Shown piece by piece: positions 7,416 through 32,240 of a DNA stretch of 64,000 nt (positions within the stretch are counted from its first letter, which is position 1; each line of letters opens with the position of its first letter). Source of the stretch: Candidatus Zambryskiibacteriota bacterium (GTDB lineage Bacteria; Patescibacteriota; Minisyncoccia; Phycocordibacterales; WO2-35-19); contig JAFGCQ010000004.1 of assembly GCA_016932555.1 (NCBI GenBank), forward strand, positions 990 to 64,989, in the 5' to 3' direction. A program made the translations under genes and the position numbers. The notes under the pieces are model-generated. The model was given only the letters and a program-made list of their open reading frames with translations. It was not told where the DNA came from and ran no database searches.

Positions 7416-10052
<2,637 letters not shown>

Positions 10053-10056
<4 letters not shown>

Positions 10057-10628
10057 CCCACCCAATTTATTAGATAAGTTTTTAACATAACATTCCTAGT
10101 TTCAGAGCCTTTAGTGTAATAAACCCATACTGTGACTTCTATTTCTCTCCCATTGGGTAATTCTTCAATTTGAATTTTTCTATTAAAAGTGGTACTGTTC
10201 CCACCTAAGGATTGACTATAAATAAATTGGGCATTTTGTTGTAAATTTGGGCAATTTCCGGCTGGGCAAAGTACTAAATCCAATGTCCCATTAGAATTTA
10301 CATTAGCTCGGCAAAATTGACCCGTAGAACAATCAGCAGCTCCCGTTATTCCATCCAGCCAATTGCCTCCTCCACCATTTATTATTTTAAGTTGATTTGA
10401 ATCTCTTATGTTCCTCACTATCTCCATACCTTCTTGAGCTAAATAAAAAGCGGTAATTTCATCTTTAGCTATAATATTTTGGGACAAGCTCTGCCTGACT
10501 GCTCCAAAAACTGCAGTGATGGCGAGAGTGACAGCTAATATAGCCACTATGGCTTCAAGCACTGTAAAACCACCCTGCGGATTTATATTGAATATTGAAT
10601 ATTGAATATTGAATATTTTTTTAATCAT
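10053..10628 (-). CDS. Prepilin-type minor pilin
   Basis: GGFTVLEAIVAILAV N-methylation/cleavage motif after a 19-aa leader. Confidence 0.7.
10586..10617. repeat. Heptanucleotide tandem repeat TATTGAA x4.6 within codons 4-14 of the minor pilin
   Basis: Four full units counted, 10586-10613, plus a partial unit. Confidence 0.9.
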
Positions 10629-10632
10629 AATT

Positions 10633-11235
10633 TTATAAATCCAAAGTTCTCCTAGAAGCTACAGTCTGCAATGAAAATTCGGTTTTAGTGGTTGCATCTT
10701 CTCCGACATGGCCTTTTACGACAATGAGTACGTATGGTTGAATATCATCACCAGGATTACTACCATAAACATAAAATTTTAAATCATCAATGATGGCTTC
10801 TTGTGAAGTAATTCTTTCAAAATCTCCTCCATTGTAAGATTTTTCAATAGAATGTTTAATATCATTAAATTTATATTGTACTCTGACATTATTTGTTAAA
10901 TCGGTATCATAAAAAGTCACTGACAGCGTCCCACTTCCATCATTGTTAATATTGCAATCGCCCACATCAGGATCCGGACTGAGAGCACAATCATAATTTT
11001 TGCCAAACTTTATAATCCTGGCCATGTCTTCAACTACAATATTTAAATTGTCCACTACTGTCTTAGATGTCCTAGACTTTCGGTTAGCATCAATGATACT
11101 AATAATAGATCCAGCAGAAATAGCCACTACTAAAAGAAATAAAGTAATAGCTACCGTCATCTCTATCAGAGTAAAGCCCGCCCGCTTCGCAGGAATTTTC
11201 AATTTCCGATTTCCAATTTTCAATTTATTTCTCAT
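10633..11235 (-). CDS. Prepilin-type minor pilin (PilW/GspJ-like)
   Basis: AGFTLIEMTVAITLFLLVV motif. Start moved to the ATG just after the upstream stop (ORF track extends to 11268). Confidence 0.65.
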   Translation of the reverse strand: MRNKLKIGNRKLKIPAKRAGFTLIEMTVAITLFLLVVAISAGSIISIIDANRKSRTSKTVVDNLNIVVEDMARIIKFGKNYDCALSPDPDVGDCNINNDGSGTLSVTFYDTDLTNNVRVQYKFNDIKHSIEKSYNGGDFERITSQEAIIDDLKFYVYGSNPGDDIQPYVLIVVKGHVGEDATTKTEFSLQTVASRRTLDL

Positions 11236-11239
11236 AATT

Positions 11240-11860
11240 TTATTGTACTGAGACTTGACCGCTAGCATCTACCGTTATGAGAGAAGTTTTACTCCCACCT
11301 GCAGATTGCAAAGTAATTTTTACTGGTGGAAAATCTTTATCAATTCCTCCAACATTGGTTAAAAGAATTTTTGCTGCAGTATCAGGCCTAAAAAACCGAA
11401 TATCTGCTTGAAACAAAGATCCACCGCCTTCAAAACACCAATTTTTTACAGAACCACAAACGTCCTTAATTGTTATTCCCTTATCAAATTTTGTTGTTTC
11501 GATTTCTTCCCCTGCATCATATTTTTCATTATGATTTTTATCTGCATAAAAAATATATTTATCAGATAAACCTTGTCTCATATAAATCCCATACCCCACA
11601 TTAAAAATATCCCCCGCCACACCTAGTTGGCCTTTTACGCCTAAACTATAAATTTGAGCTTGGCGAATCATTAAAGCTAATTCATAAGCTTCGGTATTTA
11701 CAGCCAACTGTTCATCCCATTGCCTTTGTTGCATCACAAAAACAGTTATAATAATCATCGCTATAGATATAGAGACCAAAAGTTCTATCAGAGTAAAACC
11801 TCCACTTCGCTGAAGCTTCACAGGATAAGCTATTTTTAATTTTAAATTTTTAAAAAACAT
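11240..11860 (-). CDS. Prepilin-type minor pilin (GspH/FimT-like)
   Basis: GGFTLIELLVSISIAMII motif. Confidence 0.7.
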   Translation of the reverse strand: MFFKNLKLKIAYPVKLQRSGGFTLIELLVSISIAMIIITVFVMQQRQWDEQLAVNTEAYELALMIRQAQIYSLGVKGQLGVAGDIFNVGYGIYMRQGLSDKYIFYADKNHNEKYDAGEEIETTKFDKGITIKDVCGSVKNWCFEGGGSLFQADIRFFRPDTAAKILLTNVGGIDKDFPPVKITLQSAGGSKTSLITVDASGQVSVQ

Positions 11861-25918: not shown

Positions 25919-26266
25919 TTATTTACCGCTAGTGTTTTCTGCAGCAGTTTTAGCAGCTTTAGCTTGATTTATTTCTTCTTCTTTCTTTTTAGCTTCAAGT
26001 TCTTTTTGCATCTTACCACCATGTTTGATGAATTTGCGGGTGGGAGAAAATTCGCCCAAGCGGTGTCCGACCATATCTTCACTGACTAAAACTTCGATGT
26101 GATCTTTCCCATTATGAACTCCAAAAGTAAAACCGACCATTTCTGGAGAAATTACACAAGATCTAGACCATGTTTTAATAACCTCGGTATCTTCCGGTTT
26201 TTTCCCTTCAATTTTTTTAAGAACCCTTACATCTACGTAAGGTCCTTTTTTTAGCGATCGAGACAT
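25919..26266 (-). CDS. rpsS: 30S ribosomal protein S19 (Lys/Glu-rich C-terminal extension)
   Basis: [11 protein letters not shown] start at the internal ATG (ORF track extends to 26332). Confidence 0.9.
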
Positions 26267-26343
26267 TTTTTCAATATTAAACCCGCCTGGCGGGAATAGG
26301 TTATATACTAACAAATTAGGCCTCAAAGTCAATCCTTTTCTTA

Positions 26344-28023: not shown

Positions 28024-28145
28024 ACTTTTATATTACCAATTTTTGATTCTAAAATCTTGTCTCATTATAGTTGACTAATTGTTATTAATATGGAGAATAC
28101 TATACGGAATAGATATTTGAAATAGGATATTTGAAAGGAGAAAAA

Positions 28146-29099
28146 ATGACAATAATCAAATATAAACCTTATCAAGAAAGATTGCTGGATTGGCAATATC
28201 AAAATTTGCTTAGATTTATTCGATGTTCATCTGAAACTTATCTTGCTAAAAATCCATATCAGGATAGAGGTCGTTGGACAAATTTAGAAACACCAAGAAT
28301 GGTTTTTAAATTTGAAAACGGTTTTCCTATAATTACTGAAAGAAAAATTTCTTTCTGGAAAACTGCCATTACAGAAATTATTCTTTTTTTAAACGGCGCC
28401 CGCAAATTTGAGGATATGTTAAAAGCCGGGTGCGGTTGGTGGGCTGAATGGACCTCATTGGAAAAATGTAAAGATTTGGGTCTTCAAGTTGGAGATTTGG
28501 GTCCGGGATCATATGGTCCAATTCTTCATAATTTACCAAATTTCGTATGGGATCAGCAACCATATGGTTGTTCAAGTTATAAAAATCAACCTTTCAATCA
28601 AATAGAACATCTGATTCAATCTCTCAAAGATGGGCCTGGACTTAATACCCATGTGATATCTACTTGGTATCCGCCGTTTGATATGCAACACAGCAAATTA
28701 CAGCGCCAAGTTTCGGTAGCGCCCTGCCATGGCACCAAAATGCAATTTACAGTAATCAATGGCAAAAAGCTTGTCTATACCATGACTCAGCGCTCTGGTG
28801 ATGTGCCGGTTGGTGTTGTCTCAAATATCATTCAGCATGCAGCACTTTGTATTATGGTAGCTCATGTCTGTAGATACGAGCCTTACAAATACATTCATGT
28901 CGTTGATGACGCTCAGATATACGAAAATCAAATAGAAAAAGTTGATGAGCTTTTAGACAGAATACCCTTTCGTTTACCCACTCTTCAACTCACCAAAGAG
29001 GGCCAAGAAATCAAAAATATTTTTGATTTCAAGGCCGATCACTTTGAACTTTCTGATTATGAATGTCATCCAGCTATGAAAATTCCAACTACACTTTAG
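28146..29099 (+). CDS. thyA: Thymidylate synthase family protein (divergent ThyA-like)
   Basis: VAPCH catalytic Cys, QRSGD, SNI motifs. AGGAG SD before the ATG at 28146 (ORF track TTG at 28131). Confidence 0.7.
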   Translation: MTIIKYKPYQERLLDWQYQNLLRFIRCSSETYLAKNPYQDRGRWTNLETPRMVFKFENGFPIITERKISFWKTAITEIILFLNGARKFEDMLKAGCGWWAEWTSLEKCKDLGLQVGDLGPGSYGPILHNLPNFVWDQQPYGCSSYKNQPFNQIEHLIQSLKDGPGLNTHVISTWYPPFDMQHSKLQRQVSVAPCHGTKMQFTVINGKKLVYTMTQRSGDVPVGVVSNIIQHAALCIMVAHVCRYEPYKYIHVVDDAQIYENQIEKVDELLDRIPFRLPTLQLTKEGQEIKNIFDFKADHFELSDYECHPAMKIPTTL

Positions 29100-29110
29100 A
29101 AAGGAAAGAT

Positions 29111-29692
29111 ATGTTATTGGGAAAAACTATCTCAATTATCTTTACCGCTCCCGTTTATGCTAAAAATAATCGTCTGATTATTGGCAATGGTAAATTTATT
29201 CCTTGGTTAGGTAAAGTTTCTTCAGATTTAAAGAGATTTAAAAAACTTACCTTAAATCAAACTGTGATTATGGGACGCAAAACCTGGGACTCTTTGGAAC
29301 ACAAACCTTTGCCAGATAGACAAAACATAATTCTTAGCAGAAACCCAGATATAATCTTCGAACCAAGCGATATTCCACTCAAAGATTGGACTTTTCTAGA
29401 AATAGGAGTGACCAAATCTTTTGAAAGTGCTATTTTAATGGCAAAATCTCAAACAGTATGGATAATAGGCGGTGCTGAAATTTACAAATTAGCTTTGCCT
29501 TATGTTGATTATATTCACAGAACTCTTATTTCTGGAAGATTTGATGGAGACATCTTCTTTCCAGAATATAACCTAAATGAATGGAGAAAAGATAAAGAAA
29601 AATCTATCTTTTTAAAAGCCAAAGAATTAGAAAATACGATGGATGAATATGATTCTTTTTATGAAGTTTTTGAAAGAAAGGAGGTGATATGA
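29111..29692 (+). CDS. folA: Dihydrofolate reductase
   Basis: IPW...DLKRFKKLT...VIMGRKTWDS...IIGG motifs. Internal ATG with AGGAAAG upstream. Confidence 0.8.
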   Translation: MLLGKTISIIFTAPVYAKNNRLIIGNGKFIPWLGKVSSDLKRFKKLTLNQTVIMGRKTWDSLEHKPLPDRQNIILSRNPDIIFEPSDIPLKDWTFLEIGVTKSFESAILMAKSQTVWIIGGAEIYKLALPYVDYIHRTLISGRFDGDIFFPEYNLNEWRKDKEKSIFLKAKELENTMDEYDSFYEVFERKEVI

Positions 29693-30174
29693 CAGAAAAA
29701 AAAATAATGGAAATGATTCATGCCAGAGTCGATGCCCAGCGTAAAAAAATGGAAGAATGCATTCGTCTTGGTATATGTCCACTTTGTTGGGAAAATTTAG
29801 CAAAATGGCATAATGCTCCAATATTAAGATATGGAGATTTTTGGGCCATTACAGCTAATGATCATCCTTATGAAGGTACGAAAATTCATCTCTTGGCGAT
29901 TTATAAGCATCATATAAATTCAATTGACCAAGTAGAAGTAGCTGCAGAGAATGAACTTTTCAGACTTTTTTCTCTGTTCTGTAAAAAAAATAAAATTGTT
30001 GGTGCTTCGATATTAATGCGTACAGGTGAAATGAACTACACTGGAGCAACTTTGGCACATCTTCATGCCCATTTTATTTCTGGGGTTTCTAGAGAAGAAG
30101 TAGAGAAATTTTCAGAAATCAAATATCCAAATTCATTTATCATATCGGTTCTTGGTTACAAGATTCCGAAATGA
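29689..30174 (+). CDS. HIT-family (histidine triad) protein
   Basis: HLHAHFI triad; ATGA overlap with the folA stop. Confidence 0.7.
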   Translation: MTEKKIMEMIHARVDAQRKKMEECIRLGICPLCWENLAKWHNAPILRYGDFWAITANDHPYEGTKIHLLAIYKHHINSIDQVEVAAENELFRLFSLFCKKNKIVGASILMRTGEMNYTGATLAHLHAHFISGVSREEVEKFSEIKYPNSFIISVLGYKIPK

Positions 30175-30180
30175 AAATTA

Positions 30181-30220
30181 CCCCGCACTTTTTATAAAAG
30201 TGCGGGGCTTTTTATTTTTT
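30181..30220 (+). terminator. Terminator between convergent genes
   Basis: 12-bp stem CCCCGCACTTTT/AAAAGTGCGGGG followed by CTTTTTATTTTTT. Confidence 0.7.
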
Positions 30221-31060
30221 CACTTTTAATATTTTGACTTCAGCAGCTTTTAAAGTCTCGAAGCCTTTAAGCACACTGTAGCCCTGATTAAAGATTAATC
30301 TTTTGATTTGGCATTTAGCTAACATACGAGCACAATCAGCACAAGGAAAATCTGTGACGTAAACTGTTGCACCCTTAAGAGAAATACCCTCGCGAGCACA
30401 GGTTGCAATGATTCCTTTTTCGGCGTGAAGTGATAGATAAATTTCAGATCCAGCTATATCGCCTGCATCAAAATTTATCCGCGGATCACTAAAAATTGCG
30501 GTTTCGTATTCGTTTGGATAATGCTTATTGTAGGCACAGGCAATCATCTTCCCGTCACGAAAAGCCAGAGCTCCAATTTGTCGCCACCAATCTGGTGATT
30601 TTTTACCGAGGTTAAAAGCTGCTATCATACGAAGAGTGTCGATTTCTTCGTAAGTTATCTCCATATCCGGCATAATTGGTTCTTGCCTTTTGACTGCAGT
30701 CATATCCCACCTAGCCCAGATCGGCTCAAATTTCACCTCACAATCACAATTTTTGAGATATTTCTCGGCAAAAACATGAGAAATATCCTCATCCGGCATT
30801 AAACAATCCTCTTCTATAGATATAGAATCTTCCAGAAAAAAAATTTTGACGGAGTTTTTTATAGACGGATTTCTTTTAAGACCGGAAATTATAGTGTAGA
30901 CATCAACTGCAGGCAAAGCGCAGATATTCCTTTTTAATCTGGGAATAAGAGCTTCTGCCAAATCTTGAGATATAAGATGCAAGTGAAAGGGCTCGTGGTC
31001 CTTAAGCCAAAGAAGATATTGCCGATTTATAACCGGCATATAGGCAATGAGATTATTCAT
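30212..31060 (-). CDS. Fusion protein: unknown N-terminal domain (about 130 aa) plus dCMP/cytidine deaminase domain
   Basis: HAE...PCADCA zinc-binding deaminase motifs in the C-terminal half. Confidence 0.7.
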   Translation of the reverse strand: MNNLIAYMPVINRQYLLWLKDHEPFHLHLISQDLAEALIPRLKRNICALPAVDVYTIISGLKRNPSIKNSVKIFFLEDSISIEEDCLMPDEDISHVFAEKYLKNCDCEVKFEPIWARWDMTAVKRQEPIMPDMEITYEEIDTLRMIAAFNLGKKSPDWWRQIGALAFRDGKMIACAYNKHYPNEYETAIFSDPRINFDAGDIAGSEIYLSLHAEKGIIATCAREGISLKGATVYVTDFPCADCARMLAKCQIKRLIFNQGYSVLKGFETLKAAEVKILKVKK

Positions 31061-31646
31061 TTTTCACCCCGATTTCTTTCAGATGGTCATTGATAGTTTT
31101 TTGAATTTTTTCAGGTAAACCTTCAACTCCATCCGACATGAGTCGAAGAGTTTTGGCAGTAGTCGAAGTAGCTGCTTTAGCTTCCAGATGTTTTATTTCT
31201 CCGCAAAAAGCGCTCAGTTCTTTTTTGTCTTGATCTGTAAAAGAACTGGTGGTTTTAGACATAATAAGCACATCAGGTCGAACTAGTTTGATAAGATCAT
31301 ACTTATCTTGATCTGTATCTCTGCGAGTAATGACATTTACCGAAGAGAGCATCGAAAGAACTTCTATTCTTTCTTCAAAAATATCAAAAGGTCTCTTGGG
31401 GCCTTTCATTTTTCTGGTTAATTCATCAGAGTCAACTCCAACAATAAGTATATCCCCGTATGATCTGGCTTCGGCTAGATAGCGACCATGACCAACATGG
31501 AACATATCCCAAACACCTTGAGTTAAAGCGATTCTCCAACCACCTTCTTTGAGTTGTTGGACAATATTTTTTAAATCCTCAAAATTAGGTATGTATTTAT
31601 CATCTAAACGATTTTCACCCTGCAGAATACTCTTCAATGTAGACAT
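31053..31646 (-). CDS. Cytidylyl/adenylyltransferase-like nucleotidyltransferase (RfaE domain II/TagD-like)
   Basis: WDMFHVGHGRYL HxGH motif, ...STT near the C-terminus. GGAGGAG SD before the internal ATG (ORF track TTG at 31745). Confidence 0.65.
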   Translation of the reverse strand: MSTLKSILQGENRLDDKYIPNFEDLKNIVQQLKEGGWRIALTQGVWDMFHVGHGRYLAEARSYGDILIVGVDSDELTRKMKGPKRPFDIFEERIEVLSMLSSVNVITRRDTDQDKYDLIKLVRPDVLIMSKTTSSFTDQDKKELSAFCGEIKHLEAKAATSTTAKTLRLMSDGVEGLPEKIQKTINDHLKEIGVKNE

Positions 31647-31806
31647 AACTCCTCCTTTCAAATCAAAGATTATTTCAAAATAACTCCTATCCAGTTTTCT
31701 ATCATAAACACAATTAAAAGACAAACCCCGATTGCAAATCTGCAATCGGAGTTATTTTAGAGTCTTGTTACTACCCTAAGTTCTTTAAGGTGGTGAACTG
31801 GGTTGT

Positions 31807-32142
31807 CTATAGTTTTTTATCTTTTAACATTTTCGCCACTGCTATCAGTAAAATTTTTTCATCATCGTCAAATTGGCTATATCTCTCTTTGATTGTTTCT
31901 TCAATAGCAGTTGAGAGAGAAATAGGTTCATCACTCATGAGTTCTGTCAGATCACCCTCAATAATATTAATCTTATTGCAATTACCAAGTTGGCAAAATT
32001 TTTCAGGACGAAGATTAAATTGCCCCTCAGGATTACCGTAAGGACAATTTGAACCATCTACCCAACACTTTTGCTGTTCGTTACACTTGAGTTGTTGAAC
32101 AAAACTCAAAGACAATAAATGTTCCTTAATACTTGATTCCAT
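31807..32142 (-). CDS. Cys-rich hypothetical protein
   Basis: Five Cys within residues 20-55; no recognised family. Confidence 0.35.
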   Translation of the reverse strand: MESSIKEHLLSLSFVQQLKCNEQQKCWVDGSNCPYGNPEGQFNLRPEKFCQLGNCNKINIIEGDLTELMSDEPISLSTAIEETIKERYSQFDDDEKILLIAVAKMLKDKKL

Positions 32143-32208
32143 GAGAAACCTCCAATGAAAATAAAGATCAAAATTCCTTTTAAATTTTTAGCATACTACC
32201 CAAAAAAC

Positions 32209-32240
32209 AAAAAGACTTGTAGAAAAGTCTTTTTGTTTTG
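32209..32240 (-). terminator. Bidirectional terminator after rplK
   Basis: AAAAGACTT/AAGTCTTTT stem flanked by A-runs and T-runs. Confidence 0.65.

Follow-up and report, generated by a model that had tools for sequence, protein, structure and literature searches.

Few enzymes and drug targets have been studied as closely as thymidylate synthase (TS, EC 2.1.1.45), the product of thyA. To our knowledge, its four phosphate-binding arginines (R21, R166, R126' and R127'), two of which are donated across the dimer interface, have been treated as universal, and they underlie the half-of-the-sites debate. In phage T4 (td-frd-cd) and in the bifunctional DHFR-TS of protozoa, TS and dihydrofolate reductase (DHFR), with or without deoxycytidine monophosphate (dCMP) deaminase, are encoded together or act jointly, and we know of no HIT protein or nucleotidyltransferase in either thymidylate system. 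Here we describe a locus in a 64,000-nucleotide stretch of a Candidatus Zambryskiibacteriota genome (contig JAFGCQ010000004.1 of assembly GCA_016932555.1, the whole stretch hereafter being called the window). It encodes a ThyA-like protein (the window TS), DHFR (folA) and a HIT-family protein on one strand, and convergently a cytidylyltransferase-like nucleotidyltransferase (the transferase) and a fusion protein with a dCMP-deaminase domain on the other. We propose, with a probability of about 0.6, that these five genes form a portable module leading from deoxycytidine nucleotides to thymidylate, and that its TS is a genuine but remodelled enzyme acting on the conventional substrate deoxyuridine monophosphate (dUMP). 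What is new here is the relocation of the phosphate-binding arginines itself, together with the near-invariant association of the TS with the HIT protein and a transferase pair. In a full-text literature search we found neither this TS clade nor the arginine relocation described, and the same holds for the deaminase fusion and for a link between HIT proteins and thymidylate synthesis, the function of folA genes from the candidate phyla radiation (CPR) being the sole relevant result.

The ThyA-like protein and its phosphate clamp

The window TS passes the cut-offs of both PF00303 (179.8 bits against 24.3) and the NCBIfam family TIGR03284 (125.9 bits against 108.35). Its top matches in the PDB are TSs without exception, and it is 100% identical to an NCBI 'thymidylate synthase' from a Candidatus Zambryskibacteria metagenome-assembled genome. 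It shares with canonical ThyA (E. coli and L. casei type) the fold, the Pfam and NCBIfam family and the length of the C-terminus. It also seems to be coupled to DHFR, as canonical ThyA is, with folA lying 11 nucleotides downstream and DHFR-TS fusions occurring in relatives. Identity to solved TSs is roughly 30% or less, as estimated from HMMER alignments, and identity to phage-borne canonical TSs is 23-33%. The clade to which it belongs comprises 1344 database proteins (E <= 1e-5) and, in a scan of GTDB, at least 583 species-level genomes, mostly of Patescibacteria. Residue conservation was assessed in 120 database homologs, and residue statistics were compiled for 186 non-redundant clade members. 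Residues R21, R126, R127, H128, N177 and H207 are given in E. coli numbering, positions 43 and 187 in that of the window protein.

The catalytic Cys-His pair (C146, H147), E58, Y94, Q165-R166-S167-x-D169, N177 and Y209 of canonical ThyA are common to the window TS. Together with W80/W83, they are conserved in 117-120 of the 120 homologs, and the window TS retains C194 (in the motif VAPCH), Q215-R216-S217-G-D219, N227, E77, Y123, W98/W102 and Y259. The uracil selector N177 is Asn in 117 of the 120 homologs and in the window TS, which therefore lacks the Asp that marks the dCMP hydroxymethylase/methylase branch at this position. A preliminary description of this DNA, made from the letters by eye, had already noted the catalytic Cys, the QRSGD motif and the uracil-selecting Asn, and all three are confirmed.

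The arginines are a different matter. Of the canonical quartet, the window TS has R166 (as R216) and no other, with Tyr at the position of R21, N167 at R126 and T168 at R127. In HMMER alignments to solved TSs, 'GPGLNTHVISTWYP' faces 'NPNSRRLIVSGWNP' and 'DDAQIY' faces 'GDTHLY'. A MAFFT alignment to E. coli ThyA concurs, placing L-N-T against S125-R126-R127 and DDAQIY against GDTHLY, as the preliminary description had read them. That the pair might be present in a shifted register, which would have overturned this reading, is ruled out by the agreement of the two programs and by the flanking PxL..TH.(I/V)(S/T).W, which aligns without gaps. The window TS also has Gln in place of H207. Since the canonical quartet is incomplete, we file the protein in a variant clade and not as canonical ThyA.

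The variation within the clade is strongly patterned. R126 persists in 108 members, and of the 76 that no longer have it all but one carry Arg or Lys at position 43, which sits in the N-terminal loop that bears R21 in E. coli. Scored jointly over the 186 members, R126 occurs without a basic residue at position 43 in 108, Arg or Lys at position 43 occurs without R126 in 75, one member has neither and none has both. Only in the absence of R126 is position 43 fixed, and only alongside R43 does position 126 drift (N, S, A, I or T). On a crude neighbour-joining tree the two positions change about 11-12 times, always jointly, a count that may be inflated. Such reciprocal constraint is the signature of compensatory relocation.

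A second pair of sites behaves in a similar manner. The R21-equivalent, which precedes an invariant Gln, is Arg in 21 members, and 143 have R187, located in a clade-specific insertion of 7-8 residues shortly before the catalytic Cys. No member has both (R21 only, 21; R187 only, 143; neither, 20), and members without R187 have an RGKGK-type basic insertion in its place. R127, by comparison, is lost nearly throughout the clade, being Thr in 170 of the 186 and Arg in 2, while the adjacent residue 128, Ile in E. coli, is His in 185. The 26 full-length canonical TSs from phages, which serve as a control, all retain R21, R126, R127 and H207, with a hydrophobic residue at position 128.

The arginines available to the window TS are R216, R43 and R187, all from its own chain. 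Compared with canonical ThyA, the clade has thus exchanged R127 for Thr and I128 for His, and the window TS has further exchanged R126 for R43, and R21 for a Tyr together with the R187 insertion. Most likely, R216, R43 and R187 of a single subunit hold the substrate phosphate in this protein, and none of the arginines crosses the interface; that R43 and R187 reach the phosphate is inferred from their covariation with the canonical positions. The preliminary description had suggested altered phosphate recognition. R126 and R127 are indeed absent and the clamp appears to be rebuilt, but a loss of phosphate recognition is probably wrong and the pocket still seems built for phosphate, because R126 is replaced by R43 and R21 by R187, R166 and S167 are kept, and one clade member stands alone in a phage.

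A portable five-gene module

Gene neighbourhoods were compared in 80 loci of about 17 kb each, the best of at least 583 matches and skewed to close relatives. A HIT gene adjoins the TS gene in 78 of these 80, the deaminase gene is convergent with it in 74, and the transferase gene lies directly upstream of the deaminase gene in 72. Where the locus extends at least 3.2 kb beyond the TS gene, HIT, deaminase and transferase genes are all present in 63 of 64 cases, 62 of them in the same orientation. Further thymidylate and folate genes gather around the module in some lineages, with dut within a few kb in 23 of the 80 loci (e.g. L002:6729-7157) and folD in 13.

Six high-GC loci come from actinomycetes (Catellatospora aurea, Planosporangium flavigriseum, P. 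thailandense, a Streptacidiphilus sp. and two uncultured Actinomycetota). They contain exactly the five module genes, with overlapping stops and starts, in flanks that are mutually unrelated, which indicates that the set moves as a unit and suggests that Patescibacteria and actinomycetes have exchanged the complete module.

Gene fusions connect the members of the module more tightly. DHFR and HIT form a single open reading frame (ORF) in at least 13 loci (L008, L012, L013-15, L017-19, L021, L024, L030, L033 and L041). Elsewhere the fusion involves the TS: in loci without a phmmer match to folA the DHFR is often fused ahead of the TS, and L073 and L043 encode DHFR-TS polypeptides in which the DHFR part is RibD_C-like. 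The sets of T4 and protozoa resemble the module in this joining of TS and DHFR, whereas the module invariably includes a HIT protein and a cytidylyltransferase-like enzyme as well, and its DHFR is sometimes fused to HIT instead of TS.

Two phage sequences carry parts of the set. A 158-kb phage contig (L081:4562-6840) has the overlapping transferase and fusion-deaminase pair on its own, and neither a TS-like nor a HIT gene lies within 6 kb of it. Conversely, a phage fragment (L098:5995-6918) has a TS of the clade, with R21 present and an R-T-H motif, and none of the other module genes; its neighbours are a DnaB-like helicase, a primase, an exonuclease and a Mycobacteriophage Gp53-like gene, a setting like that of ordinary phage TS genes. 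The module therefore consists of two halves, the transferase with the deaminase, and the TS with DHFR and HIT. On L081, a homolog of the Thoeris inhibitor Tad3 (PF25185, 95.5 bits) is encoded immediately upstream of the pair.

The cluster is thus conserved in relatives, where a lack of conservation would have spoken against the link drawn in the preliminary description. Taken together, its conservation, its portability to actinomycetes and the fusions support a functional link between the TS, the HIT protein and the transferase.

Deaminase fusion, nucleotidyltransferase and HIT protein

The fusion of a 130-residue domain with a dCMP-deaminase domain, seen in the preliminary description, is borne out, and the N-terminal domain can now be assigned a nucleotidyltransferase (HUP) fold without a P-loop. 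Its HxGH motif is degenerate (PVINRQY, giving N-x-x-Y here, and HxGY in distant members), and it has conserved PDEDISH and RWD motifs and the conserved residues Y7, P9, R44, E91, D92, R117, W118 and D119. Among 1.84 billion representative proteins, the domain was nearly confined to the N-terminus of proteins some 280 residues long with the fusion architecture, and no other domain architecture was found for it. A Foldseek search of the PDB with the full fusion model returned no solved chain covering both domains.

The deaminase domain (PF00383, 46.8 bits) has invariant H212, E214, C240 and C243, and its closest solved relatives in sequence and structure are dCMP deaminases, namely those of S. 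mutans (2HVV/2HVW), T4 (Cd, 1VQ2), cyanophage S-TIM5 (4P9C) and human (DCTD, 2W4L), with which it shares the HAE and PCxxC zinc motifs. All of these lack the N-terminal nucleotidyltransferase-fold domain, and the fusion differs from them also in its clade-specific SPDWWRQ and GDPRxNFDAG segments. The latter forms a loop in place of the classical second-zinc/allosteric segment, which is missing, and the score against the ComEB equivalog TIGR02571 is 49.2 bits, well below its cut-off of 219.45. In combining a dCMP-deaminase-family domain with an extra nucleotide-handling capability, the fusion resembles the AvcD-type dCTP (deoxycytidine triphosphate) deaminases and the bi-DCD of PBCV-1. The N-domain of AvcD is P-loop kinase-like, unlike the HUP fold seen here. 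A defence dCTP deaminase can be rejected: the match to NF041025 scores 44.5 bits against a cut-off of 400 and covers residues 210-268 only, the PADLOC match covers 64 of 630 profile positions, so that a zinc-motif stretch of 60-64 residues is all that resembles the defence models, and the genomic context is one of housekeeping genes and not a defence island.

The transferase (PF01467, 47.5 bits against 21) has intact HVGH and STT motifs and is the best-conserved gene of the module, with 55-75% identity across Patescibacteria. The ADP-heptose synthase type (HldC / RfaE domain II; PDB 5x9q, E 9e-14) comes closest to it, and it shares HxGH and (I)STT with HldC, TagD and ECT. It nevertheless scores below every equivalog cut-off, including that of TIGR02199 for RfaE domain II (97 bits against 181.5). 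On these profile scores it is a member of the superfamily but of no characterised subfamily, and by the NCBI criterion not a heptose enzyme. ECT has tandem active and degenerate cytidylyltransferase-fold domains, which the pairing of an intact and a degenerate copy in the module recalls, the difference being that here the degenerate copy is fused to a deaminase and not to the active copy.

The domain assignments of the TS, DHFR, the deaminase domain and the transferase are clear. The HIT protein scores marginally in Pfam (PF01230, 23.0 bits against 21.5), a cut-off passed by 19 of 23 family members. Its identity is nevertheless confirmed, because the profile of its family matches solved HIT proteins (E 1.3e-8) and the histidine triad HLHAH at residues 124-128 (HLHAHFI, 124-130) is intact. 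With Hint, Fhit and the Ap4A phosphorylase Rv2613c it shares the HxHxH triad, a CxxC near the N-terminus (CPLC) and the NxxPY element, which occurs in Ap4A-phosphorylase-like members of the superfamily. The residues R13, C30, C33, W52, P60, Y61, H67, H75, R111, H124 and H126 are invariant in its family. It differs from these proteins in its great divergence, in a conserved extra N-terminal helix (N..R...Q...M) and in being coupled or fused to DHFR. It is a member of the HIT superfamily but of no characterised subfamily, and we know of no characterised HIT protein linked to thymidylate synthesis.

Proposed pathway and alternatives

In the pathway that we favour, the deaminase domain would convert a deoxycytidine nucleotide to a deoxyuridine nucleotide, as its family membership implies. 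The ThyA-like enzyme would act as a methylene-tetrahydrofolate-dependent TS, methylating C5 of the uracil and yielding dihydrofolate, which the adjacent and sometimes fused DHFR would recycle to tetrahydrofolate (THF). Its substrate would still be dUMP, held by the relocated arginines in a clamp in which Thr and the invariant His128 have taken the place of R127', R126' is either kept or replaced by R43 of the same chain, and R21 is replaced by R187. The HIT protein, tied to TS and DHFR, and the transferase, tied to the deaminase, would be integral partners contributing one hydrolysis and one nucleotidyl-transfer step. The retained Asn177 excludes a cytosine substrate, and an adjacent or fused DHFR is sensible only if dihydrofolate is produced by the TS; together, they point to plain reductive methylation of uracil. 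Family membership, residue patterns, covariation, synteny, gene fusions and folds are direct results, while we infer the substrate of the TS and the roles of the HIT protein and the transferase. Patescibacterial folA genes complement an E. coli delta-folA mutant (PMC11974145).

Several observations weigh against this proposal. A HIT protein and a nucleotidyltransferase are not required for the ordinary route from dCMP through dUMP to thymidine monophosphate (dTMP), but none of the six actinomycete copies has lost either of them, and the proposal assigns them no defined function. The nearness of R43 and R187 to the phosphate is read from covariation, and the pocket would have two to three basic residues where canonical TS has four. 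In the folate site, F171 and F176 of canonical ThyA are replaced by P221 and S226. The compared loci favour close relatives, as stated above. Finally, rplK adjoins the module in 54 of the 80 loci and nusG in 51, nearly as often as the module genes themselves, so that synteny within the phylum partly reflects inherited gene order and is by itself no functional proof; we have downgraded it for this reason and rely instead on the copies in actinomycetes, the partial sets in phages and the fusions.

The strongest of the alternatives, although we regard it as unlikely, is a carrier-linked route. Here, the transferase would make a pyrophosphate-linked deoxycytidine conjugate (AppdC from ATP and dCMP, or dCDP-X from dCTP and X-phosphate), and the degenerate transferase domain would hold this conjugate while the attached deaminase converts C to U. 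The conjugate, or its uracil form, would go on to a complex of TS, DHFR and HIT, where the HIT protein would cleave the link, either once the conjugate has been methylated by the TS or shortly beforehand, and release dTMP. Free dUMP would never enter the pool, and the thinned arginine clamp of the TS would reflect a monoanionic alpha-phosphate. Classical HIT substrates are conjugates of nucleoside monophosphates, either pyrophosphates or phosphoramidates, and the closest relatives of the transferase are adenylyltransferases acting on phospho-sugars. Joint retention of the five genes in actinomycetes and in 63 of the 64 sufficiently long loci is in keeping with such a route, as is the gene order, which parallels the proposed sequence of reactions (transferase before deaminase, and TS/DHFR before HIT). 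The HIT-DHFR fusion ties HIT to the TS step, the N-domain of the fusion protein combines a transferase fold with a conserved pocket of its own (the residues Y7 to D119 named above), and in the TS the family-wide loss of R127, the invariant H128 and the altered folate-side residues would likewise fit. However, the lost arginines are replaced with strict covariation, which argues for a normal dianionic phosphate. The TS alone in L098 and the transferase-deaminase pair alone in L081 indicate that the two halves can work independently, which, like the arginine replacement, speaks against action of the TS itself on a conjugate, and the presence of dut near the module in 23 loci indicates that free dUTP/dUMP handling exists. 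Moreover, neither a pathway of this kind nor a benefit of one is known.

Less probable still is a role of the two additional enzymes in supply or regulation, in which TS, DHFR and deaminase would follow the textbook route from dCMP to dTMP, while the transferase and the HIT protein would serve one of two ends, either a two-step conversion to dCMP of the dCTP made by nucleoside triphosphate-type ribonucleotide reductases, or the synthesis and breakdown of a small-molecule effector. In this scheme, the N-domain would act as an allosteric nucleotide sensor replacing the dCTP/dTTP (thymidine triphosphate) site of classical dCMP deaminases. Its nucleotide-binding fold with a degenerate catalytic motif would suit such a sensor, as would the GDPRxNFDAG loop standing where the second-zinc/allosteric segment of the deaminase is missing, and extra domains or dCTP activity have precedents among solved and described relatives (bi-DCD of PBCV-1, and the models of anti-phage dCTP deaminases, to which the match is local only). 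Against it, the HIT gene is attached to the TS/DHFR side and not to the transferase/deaminase side, a two-enzyme dCTP pyrophosphatase would be uneconomical in a minimal genome, and the transferase, whose catalytic motifs are intact, is the most conserved gene of the set.

A modified base made for DNA (5-hm-dUMP, 5-hm-dCMP or 5-methyl-dCMP, by a ThyA-like hydroxymethylase or methylase) is very improbable: although the TS superfamily includes such enzymes and the window TS differs at H207 and in the folate site, Asn177 in 117 of the 120 homologs excludes cytosine as the base, DHFR is adjacent or fused while hydroxymethylases release THF, the site between argS and rplK lies in the core genome across the whole phylum, no glycosyltransferase, kinase or other modification gene lies nearby, and the NCBIfam ThyA equivalog cut-off is passed.

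The preliminary description had weighed an ordinary dTMP pathway against an altered TS working with the transferase and the HIT protein on a modified pyrimidine nucleotide. The functional link between TS, HIT and transferase survives from it, the loss of phosphate recognition is weakened, and the modified base is not supported, as Asn177 is kept and DHFR is fused in relatives. The Cys-rich protein upstream of the transferase falls outside the module (see below).

Gene layout and neighbouring features

The positions of the genes, diagnostic codons and hairpins are listed in Table 1. The folA ORF opens at 29063, but the Pfam DHFR match begins at residue 31 of this long form, and the ATG preceded by a Shine-Dalgarno sequence is that at 29111. 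The latter is most likely the start, judging from the sequence around it, and it leaves thyA and folA separated by a gap of 11 nucleotides and not overlapping; the 193-residue form also has a database record. Of the three plus-strand genes, first described as translationally coupled, folA and HIT do overlap, their stop and start sharing an ATGA at 29689-29692. On the minus strand, the ORF of the transferase spans 31053-31745, with a probable start at 31646 preceded by the Shine-Dalgarno sequence GGAGGAG, and the 8-nucleotide overlap of its stop with the deaminase start (31053-31060), reported earlier, stands. Terminator-like sites are enriched in the region, with 11 observed against 2.4 expected from shuffled sequences.

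Table 1. Features of the module and its surroundings. Positions are those of the window, except for the loci of relatives (L numbers); aa, amino acids.
Feature	Position	Strand	Remarks
thyA-like gene	28146-29099	+	317 aa; Shine-Dalgarno AAAGGAG at 28135-28141
Y38 of the window TS			E. coli R21 position
R43 codon	28272-28274	+	
L166-N167-T168-H169	28641-28652	+	E. coli S125-R126-R127-I128
R187 codon	28704-28706	+	inside family insertion
Catalytic C194 codon	28725-28727	+	VAPCH
N227 codon	28824-28826	+	E. coli Asn177
Q257 codon	28914-28916	+	E. coli H207
folA, dihydrofolate reductase	29111-29692	+	193 aa; PF00186 134 bits
HIT-family protein, divergent	29689-30174	+	161 aa; PF01230 23.0 bits
Bidirectional intrinsic-terminator hairpin	30180-30208		between the two convergent operons; 12-13 bp stem, 7 GC pairs, T-runs on both strands
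Deaminase fusion protein	30212-31060	-	282 aa; PF00383 on residues 145-257
Fusion C-terminal dCMP-deaminase domain	30212-30655	-	HAE + PCxxC zinc motifs
Fusion N-terminal domain	30671-31060	-	residues 1-130; cytidylyl/adenylyltransferase (HUP) fold
Cytidylyltransferase-like nucleotidyltransferase	31053-31646	-	197 aa; PF01467 47.5 bits
Terminator-like hairpin	31724-31753	-	between Cys-rich ORF and transferase-deaminase operon
Cys-rich ORF	31807-32142	-	111 aa; orphan, beside the module
Terminator-like hairpin	32204-32239	+	AT-rich, 15 pairs; between rplK and Cys-rich ORF
Actinomycete module loci	~8000-11500 in each of L055, L066, L068, L074, L060, L071		
DHFR-HIT single ORF	L008:8882-9844; L012:8852-9832		
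DHFR(RibD_C-like)-TS single ORF	L073:7191-8885; L043:7350-8885		

All six proteins of the locus, including that of the Cys-rich ORF, are present in public collections, as 'thymidylate synthase', 'dihydrofolate reductase', 'adenylyltransferase/cytidyltransferase family protein' and three times as 'hypothetical protein'. The Cys-rich ORF, which has five Cys and its own Shine-Dalgarno sequence, was described earlier as a protein upstream of the deaminase and transferase genes. The ORF is indeed there but lies outside their unit: we reject it as a member of the module, since homologs are found in none of the 80 related loci, a hairpin separates it from the operon (a second one brackets it on the other side), and it forms a singleton cluster ('hypothetical protein') in a collection of 15 billion proteins. 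It has no match in Pfam, NCBIfam, PHROG or PADLOC, and may be a lineage-specific small protein or no gene.

The module is flanked by rpsC-rplV-rpsS-argS on one side and rplK-nusG-secE on the other, with folD 2.4 kb beyond. The ORF of ribosomal protein S19 (25919-26332, minus strand, 137 aa) opens with TTG, and its Pfam match covers residues 25-104, so the true start is probably further downstream. After the domain follows a C-terminal tail rich in Lys, Glu and Ala.

Implications for thymidylate synthesis

Patescibacteria have minimal genomes and are not known to make nucleotides de novo. The HIT protein and the nucleotidyltransferase pair, which synteny, fusions and co-transfer tie to the TS clade and which have no assigned role in dTMP synthesis, probably represent essential, uncharacterised steps in their supply of DNA precursors. 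Actinomycetes are known hosts of Saccharibacteria, and the module in actinomycetes would mean that an entire pathway has crossed between the lineages of symbiont and host.

For the TS family, this clade of at least 583 species-level genomes indicates that arginines at other sites can take over the phosphate clamp, and that such changes are recurrent and reversible (R126' to R43 and back). It supplies natural variants, cis-only as well as trans, with which the purpose of the shared active site could be tested. If the reading of its arginines is true, the window TS would be the first natural thymidylate synthase with an active site built wholly from one subunit.

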